DNA from: Actinobacteria bacterium RBG_16_68_21
GTDB taxonomy: Bacteria; Actinomycetota; Acidimicrobiia; Spongiisociales; UBA11373
Direction: 5' to 3'
NCBI GenBank assembly: GCA_001767695.1
Contig: MELR01000011.1
Span: 192 to 64,191, forward strand
DNA length: 64,000 nucleotides
Position numbers and translations under genes: made by a program. How positions within the stretch are numbered: the stretch's first letter is position 1; each line of letters begins with the position of its first letter. The notes beneath the pieces are model-generated. The model was not told the origin of the DNA. It saw only the letters and a list, made by a program, of their open reading frames with translations, and did not search any database. Shown here piece after piece: positions 1-15,590 of the stretch.

Positions 1-172
1 TCCAAGTTTCCCTGGGCTATCCCGGTCTCCGGGGCAGGTTCCTCACGTGTTACTCACCCGTTCGCCACTAGGTGACCCACCTCGGTTACCCGAGATGGGA
101 CCCTCGTTCGACTTGCATGCATTAGGCACGCCGCCAACGTTCGTCCTGAGCCAGGATCAAACTCTCCAACGA
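1..172 (-). rRNA. rrs: 16S ribosomal RNA, 5' end only (gene continues beyond window start)
   Basis: Reverse complement of 1-172 reads ...TTGGAGAGTTTGATCCTGGCTCAGGACGAACGTTGGCGGCGTGCCTAATGCATGCAAGTCGAACG..., the universal 16S 5' terminus including the 27F primer site. Confidence 0.93.
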
Positions 173-9927: not shown

Positions 9928-10284
9928 CTAGGCGTCGGGAAGCCCTGCCGCCTTGACGAGAGCACCGAAGGCCGACGGATCCGACACCGCCATCTCGGCG
10001 AGCATCTTGCGGTCGATTTCGATCTCGTTCGCCTTCAACCCGGCGATCAGCCGCGAATAGGTCGTGCCGTTCTCCCGGGCGGCGGCATTGATGCGGGCGA
10101 TCCACAGCTTGCGGAAGTCGCCCTTACGCGTCCGCCGGTCGCCGTAGGCGTCCTGCATGGCGTTCATCACCTGTTCGTTCGCTGCCCGCAAGCGGCGGCT
10201 GCGTGAACCCTTGTAACCCTTCGCCCGCTCGAGGACCTTGCGCCGGCCCTTCTTCGAGTGAACGGCGCGTTTGACTCGTGCCAT
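9928..10284 (-). CDS. rplT: 50S ribosomal protein L20
   Basis: [24 protein letters not shown]..., canonical L20 N-terminus, 118 aa. Confidence 0.95.
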
Positions 10285-10294
10285 CAGCCGCCTC

Positions 10295-10492
10295 CTAGCG
10301 TCCCAACATCCGGTCGACCCGCTTGCGATCTGCGTCCGACACCGGGGCGTCGCCCTTGAGTCGACGCAGCTGGCGACCCGACTTCTTGCCCACGACGAGG
10401 TGCGCCCTTCCCGACTGGCGGCGGCGGACCTTGCCAGTTCCGGTGACCTTGAACCGCTTGGCGGCCGACCGGCGCGTCTTCTGCTTTGGCAT
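10295..10492 (-). CDS. rpmI: 50S ribosomal protein L35
   Basis: [25 protein letters not shown]..., about 65 aa basic protein between infC and rplT. Confidence 0.9.
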
Positions 10493-10494
10493 GC

Positions 10495-11061
10495 TCACTC
10501 CTCCGTTGCTGCCGGTTCCGCGGGTGGGACCTGTTCCACCGTCTCCCGGCGGCGCTTCTCCGGCATGAATTGCATCGTCATGTTCCGCCCCTCGAGCTTC
10601 GGGCCGGTCTCCACCGCTCCGAACCCGGCGATGTCCTCGGCGAGCCGGCGCAAGATGCGCTCGCCCAGCTCGGGATGGCTCAGCTCACGACCGCGGAACA
10701 TCAGCGTGACCTTCACCTTGTCCCCATCGTCGAGAAACTCGAGCACCCGGCGCTTCTTCCACTCGTAGTCGTGGTCATCCGTCTTGGGCCGGAACTTCAC
10801 TTCCTTGACCACCGTGCGGGTCTGTTTCTTGCGGGCCTCACGCTGGCGTACGGACTGCTCGTATTTGTACTTCCCGAAGTCCATCAGCCTGCAGACCGGG
10901 GGCCGGGCGTCGGGGGCGACCTCGACCAGGTCCATGCCCAGCTGAGTGGCGAGCCATCTCGCCTCCTCGATCTTCTTCACCCCGATCTGACTGCCGTCCG
11001 GCGCGACTACGCGCACCTCCTTGGCCCTGATCTTGTCGTTGACCCTTAGTTCCTGCGTGAT
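10495..11061 (-). CDS. infC: translation initiation factor IF-3 (non-AUG ATC start)
   Basis: IF-3 N and C domains (VNDKIRAKEVRVV..., KEVKFRPKTDDHDYEWK); in-frame ATC codon (ITQELRVNDKI) 8 nt downstream of GGAGGT; IF-3 genes classically start with AUU/AUC/AUA for autoregulation. Confidence 0.85.
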   Translation of the reverse strand: MTQELRVNDKIRAKEVRVVAPDGSQIGVKKIEEARWLATQLGMDLVEVAPDARPPVCRLMDFGKYKYEQSVRQREARKKQTRTVVKEVKFRPKTDDHDYEWKKRRVLEFLDDGDKVKVTLMFRGRELSHPELGERILRRLAEDIAGFGAVETGPKLEGRNMTMQFMPEKRRRETVEQVPPAEPAATEE

Positions 11062-11225
11062 ATTCGGTAGACCTCCTAGGCGGTCAGAACAGAGGAAAGA
11101 CGGCAGGGGCTGCCGTCTTCTCGGTGAGAGGACCACGGCTCACTCCTGATCCCCGCAGGGCAAGGTGGCCGGGTGGGAAGCAGCGCCTCCGCTTTCGACT
11201 CGGTTGTAGGCAAAGGAGTATAGGC
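11062..11225 (-). promoter_or_regulatory. infC-rpmI-rplT leader: TATACT -10-like element plus terminator-like attenuator hairpin (L20-leader-like)
   Basis: Minus-strand leader holds TATACT (plus-strand agtata, about 11217-11222), rare in 70% GC DNA, then hairpin GAAGACGGCAG-cccc-CUGCCGUCUUC (11097-11121) followed by a U/C-rich tract, 36 nt upstream of the infC ATC start. Confidence 0.45.
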
Positions 11226-11286
11226 CGACCGGGGCCGCCAGCAGCCGCCCCCAACCCGACGATGCCGGACCCCGGCAGGGATGGGC

Positions 11287-11997
11287 TCACCCTCCGTCCG
11301 AGTCGAACAGCGTGCCTTGTGGATCCGGCCGGCGGTACCGGCCCACGCCTCCCCAGCTCAGGCCGTCCATGAACACCCAGGACCGTCGATGAATGGCACT
11401 GGGGCCGTACCAGTGGAGAGCGGCGCGGTGCCGCGGGCCCGGATAGCCCTTGTTGGACTCGAACCAGTAATGCGGGTAGTGGCTCGCCTCTGCCCGCATG
11501 ATGCGGTCGCGGGTCACCTTGGCCAGGATCGACGCGGCCGCGATGGACAGGCAGCTCGAGTCGCCTCCGACGATCGTCGTGGTGCGCGGCGACCCGATGA
11601 AATCCCACGAGCCGTCCGCCAGTACGGCATCCGGCGTCATTCCCAGACCGTCGAACGCCCGTCGTGCCGCCAGCCGCTGCGCGGCGGACATGCCGAGCTC
11701 GTCGCACTCCGCGTGGGAGGCATGGCCGACTGCCCAGGCATCGCACCATTCGGCAATCCGATCGAACATCGCCTCCCGCTCCGCCTCGGTGAGCATTTTC
11801 GAGTCACGGATCTTGTAGACGCGACGGTGCCGGGGGATGACCGCCACTCCCACAGTGATCGGGCCGGCCCAGGCGCCCCTTCCCACCTCGTCGGTGCCGA
11901 CCACCACCCGGGCTCCCCCCGCCCAGAGGGCCCGCTCCCTGGTCGTCCCCGGGGCGTTGTGCTTGAGGGAGGCGCGCAGGACGGGAACGGTGGTCAC
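11287..11997 (-). CDS. rnhB: ribonuclease HII
   Basis: GTDEVGRGAWAGPITVGVAV (DEVGRG catalytic motif) and SKMLTEAER; GTG start at 11997. Confidence 0.88.
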   Translation of the reverse strand: MTTVPVLRASLKHNAPGTTRERALWAGGARVVVGTDEVGRGAWAGPITVGVAVIPRHRRVYKIRDSKMLTEAEREAMFDRIAEWCDAWAVGHASHAECDELGMSAAQRLAARRAFDGLGMTPDAVLADGSWDFIGSPRTTTIVGGDSSCLSIAAASILAKVTRDRIMRAEASHYPHYWFESNKGYPGPRHRAALHWYGPSAIHRRSWVFMDGLSWGGVGRYRRPDPQGTLFDSDGG

Positions 11998-12029
11998 CCG
12001 GCGACGTTACTAGGAGGCCGCTTCGCGGC

Positions 12030-12100
12030 CCGCAATTGGCAATTGGCAACCAGTAATTCGCGTCGAAGGGGTTGTCTAACTGGAAATCTGGAAACTGGAG
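12030..12100. repeat. Heptamer tandem-repeat spacer (locus A): (GCAATTG)2-3 then CTGGAAAT-CTGGAAA-CTGGAG
   Basis: gcaattggcaattggcaacc (12032-12050) and ctggaaatctggaaactggag (12079-12099), between ribH stop and rnhB start. Confidence 0.8.
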
Positions 12101-12105
12101 ACGAC

Positions 12106-15424: not shown

Positions 15425-15590
15425 CCCGTGGTCAGGGGCACGCGAGCGCGGGCGCGCGGTCGCGTGCCCTTCTTCTCTCATCCGGACTGTCACCGTCGAC
15501 TCCGGATTTCCACCGGATCGGCCTCTCGGAAAGGTTCGCGGGTTGTCACCGCCGGTCGGGAATCGCACCCTGCCCTGAAGAAGGGCTCTG
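15425..15590 (-). promoter_or_regulatory. FMN riboswitch (RFN element) with expression-platform hairpin, 5' of ribD
   Basis: Minus-strand reading has CUUCUUCAGGGCAGGGUGCGAUUCCCGACCGGCGGU...GUCGACGGUGACAGUCCGGAUGAGAGAAGAAGGGC, matching the RFN core (GGGCAGGGUGaAAUUCCCgACCGGCGGU ... GACAGUgAAAGUCUGGAUGgGAGAAGg). P1 is cuucuuc/gaagaag. The P1 3' strand overlaps hairpin GGGCACGCGA...UCGCGUGCCC (15435-15468) just upstream of the GGGAG RBS. Confidence 0.88.

Follow-up and report, generated by a model that had tools for sequence, protein, structure and literature searches.

The stretch of DNA analysed here (64,000 nucleotides of contig MELR01000011.1 of Actinobacteria bacterium RBG_16_68_21, a member of the class Acidimicrobiia; hereafter, the window) carries on its minus strand the operon infC–rpmI–rplT, which encodes initiation factor IF-3 as well as ribosomal proteins L35 and L20, and the 5′ untranslated region (UTR) of this operon very probably belongs, judging from its sequence and conserved pairing, to the L20-leader family of Bacillus subtilis. 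With somewhat less confidence, we also consider it likely that the full mechanism of L20-mediated attenuation operates in the window (that is, that an excess of L20 would stop transcription ahead of infC). The original prediction, made from the letters of the window, had proposed such an attenuator on the strength of a TATACT box, a terminator-type hairpin and a non-AUG start codon. The mechanism is a known one and not new, and the result is a useful correction to annotation; what is added here is the presence of the element in every Acidimicrobiia locus examined, a high-GC form that Rfam misses and a structure backed by covariation. Throughout an entire class of actinobacteria, L20-dependent attenuation of infC–rpmI–rplT seems to be the norm.

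Structure and conservation of the infC leader

One scan of a genome collection, with IF-3 as the query, yielded 80 loci, 73 of the Acidimicrobiia type and seven from Firmicutes (Moorella, Peptococcaceae and Thermincola), and the leader architecture was read from the 230 nt upstream of each infC start. The same order of elements recurs in 69 infC loci (that is, the window and 68 relatives, nearly all of which carry an Acidimicrobiia label): a −10 hexamer of the form TANNNT, an AA-G motif, a first helix (P1), a bulged second helix (P2), a GC-rich hairpin, a U-rich run, a Shine–Dalgarno (SD) sequence and an AUN start codon (Table 1). Within this order, the operator (AA-G, P1 and P2) follows the pattern AAG-N-GGARGC, a loop of 3–6 nt, GCUUCC-CACCCGGCC(R)CC, a variable apex and GG(Y)G-x-GCCG-x-GGU, and is succeeded on its 3′ side by a linker of 5 to ~90 nt and then by a GCAGC-rich hairpin with a U-rich tail.

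Alignment of 61 distinct operators, with six pairs assigned to P1 and ten pairs and two bulges to P2, gave standard pairing in 99.1% of 976 cells. The observed values for pairing and covariation were reached by none of 500 shuffles, and sliding the partners by 1–3 columns lowered pairing to 28–54%. Changes on both sides of a pair are found in P2, in which 98.5% of cells are paired and five pairs vary in this way (one position has A-U, G-C and C-G in 33, 24 and 3 sequences, respectively); its apical extension (11144..11164 in the window) is variable. Helix P1 is paired in 100% of cells; its only variation is one-sided (A-U to G·U), which fits a protein site that is conserved in sequence. At the base of P1, two adjacent G-C pairs (15-33 and 16-32) never vary, and 19-28 and 20-27 are of the standard G-C or C-G type in 59 and 58 of the 61 sequences, respectively, and G·U in the remainder; the AA-G motif precedes P1 in all 61 operators (as AAG-N-GGRRGY in 44 and as AAGAG-N-GGRRGY in 17). 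When 20 full leaders were given to RNAalifold, both helices were recovered unaided. The folding of single leader sequences was no more stable than that of their shuffles (z = −0.87 and −0.03), so thermodynamics alone is uninformative here. With this proportion of paired cells, five pairs changed on both sides and a concordant RNAalifold consensus, the leader passes the comparison across relatives that the original prediction had named as a check.

The hexamer on the 5′ side of the operator is equally constant in place: a TANNNT sequence lies 13–30 nt (mode 24–25) upstream of P1 in 62 of 62 loci, most commonly as TATACT (24 loci), which is the box that had been pointed out in the window and that is indeed present there (reading 11222..11217 on the minus strand). 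A −35 element that matches at four or more of six positions accompanies it in 27 loci, several of which have TTGACA at 16 nt. The window has no good −35 element and a σ70 scan found no promoter, so the −10 hexamer is assigned solely from its conservation. Just 5′ of the operator, always at the same position, ~27 loci have an exact match to ACAAYCGA, a box for which neither a partner sequence nor a function was found.

The hairpin begins 96 nt after TATACT (~95 nt had been estimated). It comprises ten Watson–Crick pairs and a closing G·U (−16.3 kcal/mol), and not the perfect 11-bp helix described earlier, in which the final letter was given as C and is in fact U. The tail that had been reported behind it is present, although the string given for it was two letters too long. 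The SD sequence starts 19 nt past the hairpin and the ATC codon 34 nt past it; the distance of 36 nt formerly ascribed to the ribosome-binding site is nearer to that of the start codon. Most relatives have a comparable hairpin with a T-rich tail 21–55 nt before the start codon, followed in most by runs of 4–8 U, and the stem varies in sequence among them with its pairing retained; what is kept in this predicted terminator between operator and SD is thus structure rather than sequence. A simple scan marked the hairpin as the sole terminator-like site on the minus strand in 2.4 kb. Counting both strands, there were three such sites against 1.2 ± 1.4 expected, so chance could account for the hairpin taken singly; its recurrence together with the −10 box, the SD sequence and the AUN start at the same places is, on the aligned loci, beyond chance.

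Table 1 Features of the infC leader and its operon in the window (positions count from the first letter of the window)
Feature	Position	Strand	Remarks
−10 hexamer TATACT	11217..11222	−	assigned from conservation
ACAAYCGA box	11200..11207	−	between −10 and operator; predicted transcript 5′ end
Operator domain (AA-G, P1, P2)	11130..11203	−	R1 64.2 bits, E 6.6e-14
AAAG	11192..11195	−	unpaired AA dimer and G, directly 5′ of helix P1
Helix P1 ('conserved domain')	11176..11190	−	GGAGGC, loop GCU, GCUUCC
Antiterminator 5′ strand (proposed)	11177..11187	−	GGCGCUGCUUC; end of P1 5′ arm, loop and most of 3′ arm
Helix P2	11132..11174	−	ACCCGGCCAC with GUG-a-GCCG-u-GGU; two 1-nt bulges in 3′ strand
Leader hairpin (predicted terminator)	11096..11120	−	GAAGACGGCAG (11120..11110), loop CCC, CUGCCGUCUUU (11106..11096)
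U/C-rich tail	11085..11095	−	CCUCUGUUCUG; weak U tract
SD GGAGGU (GGAGGT)	11071..11076	−	9 nt before ATC; 78 loci have a GGAGG-type SD ahead of the AUN codon
infC	10495..11061	−	IF-3, 188 aa, ATC at 11061..11059; Pfam IF3_N at residues 7-76, then IF3_C
rpmI (L35)	10295..10492	−	Pfam Ribosomal_L35p; gene order kept in relatives
rplT (L20)	9928..10284	−	Pfam Ribosomal_L20 matches across full length
rnhB	11997..11287	−	upstream neighbour of infC leader

Probable kinship with L20 leaders and the proposed switch

The link to the known family comes from R1, a covariance model built from Acidimicrobiia operators only. Searched over 535 kb, R1 returned 69 matches at 38–69 bits, one per locus and each just 5′ of infC, including seven loci outside the model-building set; the five loci without a match are truncated or contain Ns, the best background match scored 15.4 bits, and the operator is the only strong match in the 64-kb window. 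The same model matches all seven Firmicutes loci at 20.7–30.3 bits, and in the four of these that RF00558 (the L20_leader family of Rfam) matches as well, the R1 match lies at most 3 nt from the 5′ end of each RF00558 match. The aligned sequences read AAG-N-AGARGC ... GCUUCU-CACCUUAC...GGU in Firmicutes and AAG-N-GGARGC ... GCUUCC-CACCCGGC...GGU in Acidimicrobiia, with the same bulge pattern in helix 2. Because a model made from Acidimicrobiia alone finds the L20 operators of Firmicutes, we take the element to be a divergent L20 leader, and the L20-leader architecture that the original prediction had seen in the window is supported both by this match and by the conserved, covarying operator.

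In the direction from Rfam to the window, no family matches the leader at gathering scores in a search of the whole window. The gathering threshold of RF00558 is 58.7 bits, which four of the seven Firmicutes loci pass as a positive control; at E ≤ 10 there was one full-length sub-threshold match, of 27.6 bits and in the correct place, at L010. We read the failure of RF00558 as a limit of the model and not as biology, because the reverse search with R1 connects the two groups. It had been claimed that the element lies outside the L20_leader annotation of Rfam, and this agrees with cmsearch, which found no RF00558 match in the window even at E ≤ 10. Three Moorella-type Firmicutes loci (L070, L074 and L080) likewise score below the RF00558 gathering threshold and reach 21.8–29.4 bits with R1; RF00558 therefore also misses some members in Firmicutes.

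The B. subtilis operator consists of a conserved 5′ domain (the upper helix), two unpaired A residues that precede it and an adjacent helix; L20 gives footprints and toeprints on it, and both binding and the termination that it provokes have been demonstrated in that organism (PMC1865079). The conserved AA of that leader (PMC1865079; PMC3849166) corresponds to the AA-G found here, and the features cited as common to L20 leaders, an AA dimer and two consecutive G-C pairs (PMC7247131), are both present; the window itself is without 23S rRNA. Set against the Firmicutes leader as a whole (RF00558; Choonee et al. 2007, PMC1865079), the element shares the AA dimer before helix 1, a near-identical helix 1 ((A/G)GARGC ... 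GCUUC(U/C)CACC), a bulged helix 2 directly next to it followed by a hairpin of the intrinsic-terminator type, complementarity of the loop and 3′ side of helix 1 to the terminator's 5′ side, a position 5′ of infC in infC–rpmI–rplT, and a non-AUG infC start. It differs in being GC-rich, in having a P2 apex that ranges from 4 to ~45 nt, in the weak U tract of the window and in its scores under the RF00558 threshold; furthermore, in the subclade of the window the linker between P2 and the terminator is only 7–11 nt long and a fourth helix is therefore lacking.

The antiterminator of B. subtilis arises when the conserved domain pairs with the terminator's 5′ side, a pairing that bound L20 precludes (PMC1865079). 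By analogy, we propose that the 5′ UTR of infC–rpmI–rplT (~11210..11062, minus strand) acts as a transcription attenuator of the same family. Transcription would begin a few bases past TATACT, and the leader could adopt either of two folds: one in which P1 and P2 make the operator, and another (the antiterminator) in which GGCGCUGCUUC, made up of the end of the 5′ arm of P1 with its loop and 3′ arm, is paired with the hairpin 5′ arm. Excess free L20 would bind and lock P1 and P2, the hairpin with its U-rich tail would then form, and RNA polymerase would stop before infC; once L20 is drawn off by new rRNA, the antiterminator would win and the whole operon, including rplT, would be transcribed. 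The operator domain is thereby presumed to be both the L20-binding site and an anti-antiterminator, L20 the presumed regulator, and rplT the last gene of the regulated unit. A second, independent loop may act at translation, through an infC AUC start that would be discriminated against by IF-3 itself. From the experiments on B. subtilis we infer L20 as the ligand here and transcription termination at the hairpin.

Several results favour the proposed antiterminator. If the transcript of the window is cut before the 3′ arm of the terminator, the minimum-free-energy (MFE) fold pairs GGCGCUGCUUC with GAAG-a-CGGC-a-GCC (11120..11108), enclosing P2; the hairpin 5′ arm and loop (11108..11120) would thus serve as the 3′ strand of the antiterminator. 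Across relatives, the loop and 3′ arm of P1 are the best 14-nt partner of the hairpin 5′ arm in 32 of 55 loci (~6.6 expected), and folds of cut transcripts pair five or more arm bases with the P1 region in 44 of 55, with a mean of 6.4 such bases as compared with 1.8 for shuffled arms; in the window, 9 of the 11 arm bases pair in this way. The complementary cores differ between phyla (GCUGC/GCAGC in Acidimicrobiia and (U)CCGC/GCGG(A) in Firmicutes), and duplexes of operator and arm have energies of −12.9 and −14.5 kcal/mol within a phylum as against −8.9 and −9.0 kcal/mol across phyla. A direct repeat of the 5′ leader (ACCGAG...) and the terminator flank, hinted at by a few loci, was also considered and rejected as not general (mean z 0.5, with z > 2 in 6 of 55 loci).

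Other observations weigh against the attenuator as proposed. Within the clade, operators pair no better with their own arms than with permuted ones (own −12.95, permuted −12.75 ± 0.23; 992 of 5,000 permutations as good), which we attribute to the GCUGC/GCAGC core being common to nearly all loci; the covariation evidence for the antiterminator therefore lies between phyla and not within the clade. In the window, the antiterminator duplex (~−11 kcal/mol) is weaker than the hairpin (−16.3 kcal/mol), four other 14-nt stretches pair with the hairpin arm as well as or better than P1, and the U tract is poor (UUUCCUCUGUU). RF00558 gave no match over 10900..11400 at E ≤ 10 and none of 13 Acidimicrobiia loci reached its gathering score. 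What the operator imitates in B. subtilis is the L20 site of 23S rRNA, at the H40/H41 junction. Against E. coli 23S rRNA, R1 gave no significant match; its best score was 6.6 bits at ~nt 1266–1364, outside H40/H41, a weak result of the kind expected given that the L20 site is discontinuous. A separate notion that the AGAAGC of the leader copies a 23S sequence was dropped: the sequence occurs at ~nt 1062–1076 of 23S rRNA, which we take to be the L11-binding GTPase-associated region (H43/H44), well 3′ of H40/H41.

Alternative explanations and evolutionary setting

The simplest rival, to which we give almost no credence, is that the hairpin does no more than end transcription of the genes before it (rnhB and the rib operon) and that the infC leader is ordinary and unregulated. 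The hairpin follows rnhB on the same strand at a distance of 167 nt from the rnhB stop codon, it could also block read-through from the genes upstream, and by itself it is, as noted, not beyond chance. A mere terminator does not account for a conserved −10 box and a 74-nt covarying operator between rnhB and the hairpin, for the complementarity of the hairpin 5′ arm to that operator, or for the same leader and hairpin preceding infC where the upstream gene is ribH or unrelated. Indeed, rnhB is next upstream only in the window and eight close relatives, ribH being the neighbour in most loci and other genes elsewhere. The leader tracks infC whatever gene lies upstream and is therefore not simply the rnhB terminator; the original prediction had named the opposite outcome as one that would overturn it. 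(The subclade of the window, with rnhB between ribH and infC, includes L001, L002, L004 and L006–L009.) Somewhat less remote, yet still improbable, is a regulatory RNA of the same architecture that answers to another effector (L35, IF-3 or other) or is read out through RNA stability or translation. L35 and IF-3 are encoded in the operon just as L20 is, the U tract of the window is weak, and the ligand in Acidimicrobiia is assigned by homology; on the other hand, the operator aligns position by position with an operator of the B. subtilis type, most relatives have canonical U tracts, and no conserved pairing involving the SD sequence was found. L20-mediated transcription attenuation remains the reading that we prefer.

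A third possibility leaves that mechanism intact and concerns its history: the Acidimicrobiia element may be of independent origin, or it may have been acquired by horizontal transfer from Clostridia-like Firmicutes. We consider this unlikely, although it deserves more weight than the other two. Selection on both elements to mimic the same rRNA site can make sequences converge, horizontal transfer was suggested for the few actinobacterial homologues by Deiorio-Haggar et al. (PMC3849166), and the nearest IF-3 proteins outside the clade in our scan, which is biased by its peptide patterns, are those of Moorella, Peptococcaceae and Thermincola. The likeness, however, exceeds what a protein-binding site would require, extending to its place ahead of infC, the pattern of bulges in P2 and the logic by which the P1 loop and the terminator interact, and no Acidimicrobiia locus with enough upstream sequence lacks the element, which speaks for a long vertical history within the class.

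The original prediction took the L20 leader to be limited to Firmicutes, a view that is out of date. In 2010, Mpr8, which is located upstream of infC and co-transcribed with it in Mycobacterium bovis BCG, was placed in the L20-leader family (PMC2896511), and a 2013 survey listed 'a few homologs' for Actinobacteria, proposing that they had arrived by horizontal transfer (PMC3849166). These reports share with the present case an element of the L20-leader type before infC in Gram-positive bacteria of high GC content; they describe Rfam hits in Actinomycetes, without structural or comparative analysis, whereas the element here belongs to the class Acidimicrobiia, is missed by Rfam and occurs in every locus examined. 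We tentatively raise the possibility, about which we are more doubtful than confident, that the L20 leader is shared by all Acidimicrobiia through vertical inheritance, and perhaps by the Actinomycetota at large, rather than being a narrow Firmicutes element that was now and then transferred. Were this correct, the attenuator would be as old as the ancestor shared by Firmicutes and Actinobacteria, and high-GC forms of it would be escaping current models. The relatives that the large protein search yielded were all close ones (at least 69% identity). Attenuation across a whole class would weaken the view of the L20 leader as narrowly Firmicutes, an extension of RF00558 to high-GC forms could start from the alignment of 61 sequences and its model, and the element may offer a GC-rich natural variant for the study of RNA recognition by its putative ligand L20.

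The translational operator of L20 in E. coli (formed by a pseudoknot plus an irregular stem where infC meets rpmI) has in common with the element described here the presumed effector L20 and, in principle, a putative rRNA mimicry that involves an AA dimer. That operator acts on rpmI translation and sits within the 3′ end of infC, whereas the element here precedes infC and is coupled to a terminator-type hairpin. No E. coli-type operator was seen in the window: the rpmI ATG (10492) overlaps the end of infC (10495), there is no intergenic space between the two genes, and no Rfam family matches at the junction.

Start codon of infC and the surrounding locus

The ATC that had been proposed as the infC start is borne out: it is in frame with the IF-3 open reading frame (ORF), IF3_N begins at residue 7, and AUN is kept in relatives. 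The next canonical in-frame start is a GTG at codon 15, within the IF3_N domain, and the sole canonical one upstream is the GTG at 11136, 25 codons earlier and within leader helix P2; the window thus has an AUN codon behind an SD sequence and no usable canonical start. The spacer between GGAGGT (11076..11071) and ATC measures 9 nt and not 8 nt as had been given. Among the aligned infC starts of all 78 loci, 63 are ATC, 9 ATT and 6 ATA, and in 33 of 71 Acidimicrobiia loci there is an in-frame stop upstream with no canonical start after it; together, these patterns make the non-canonical infC start a conserved feature. An AUC start of infC is found in Myxococcus too. An ATC start for infC is textbook knowledge and was already known, and no difference is apparent from IF-3 autoregulation through a non-canonical start (AUU in E. 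coli, AUC in Streptomyces), the combination here being AUC with a strong SD sequence across the clade. The start codon of infC (ATT in E. coli, ATC in Streptomyces) is the means by which IF-3 holds back its own translation, and it is usually overlooked in annotation (PMC5472188), in agreement with the statement of the original prediction that a non-AUG AUN start is the known autoregulatory feature of infC.

The IF-3 of the window is 100% identical to a protein of Actinobacteria bacterium RBG_16_68_21, and public records for the same IF-3 give lengths of 203 aa (NCBI) or 213 aa (JGI/ENA), compared with 188 aa from the conserved ATC. The length of the former implies a start at CTG 11106, within the 3′ arm of the terminator, and that of the latter equals the ORF from GTG 11136, within helix P2; public annotation therefore places IF-3 start codons within the leader RNA.

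On the minus strand, the order of genes is ribD-ribE-ribBA-ribH, rnhB, a gap of 225 nt, infC, rpmI, rplT, a SpoU-type methylase and pheS/pheT. L20 is encoded downstream of infC in all 78 loci, and L35 was detected between them in all but three. The ribD-ribE-ribBA-ribH operon lies directly upstream of rnhB and infC and is itself preceded by an FMN riboswitch (RF00050, 108.4 bits, 15466-15586, minus strand) just upstream. The gap between ribH and rnhB (11998-12105) is apparently lower in GC than its surroundings and contains short tandem repeats (CAATTGG CAATTGG; CTGGAAAT CTGGAAACTGGAG), as well as a hairpin, GGCCGC-GAA-GCGGCC, that adjoins the rnhB start. Positions 1-172 (minus strand) of the window hold the 5′ end of a 16S rRNA gene that runs past the window start (RF00177, 115.2 bits).

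Within the collection of relatives, five loci (L010, L022, L048, L030 and L061) come from metagenome-assembled genomes (MAGs) labelled Kiloniellaceae, Gammaproteobacteria or Acidobacteriota; given that both IF-3 and the L20 leader there match the Acidimicrobiia type, these contigs are probably mis-binned or mislabelled. At L033 (public MAG contig CALCCX010000372.1), the first ~60 of the 230 bases upstream of the infC start resemble an Illumina adapter or index (...CAGACGGCATACGAGAT...GTGACTGGAGTTCAGACGTGTGCTCTTCCGATCT), and an assembly artefact thus truncates the infC leader at this locus.

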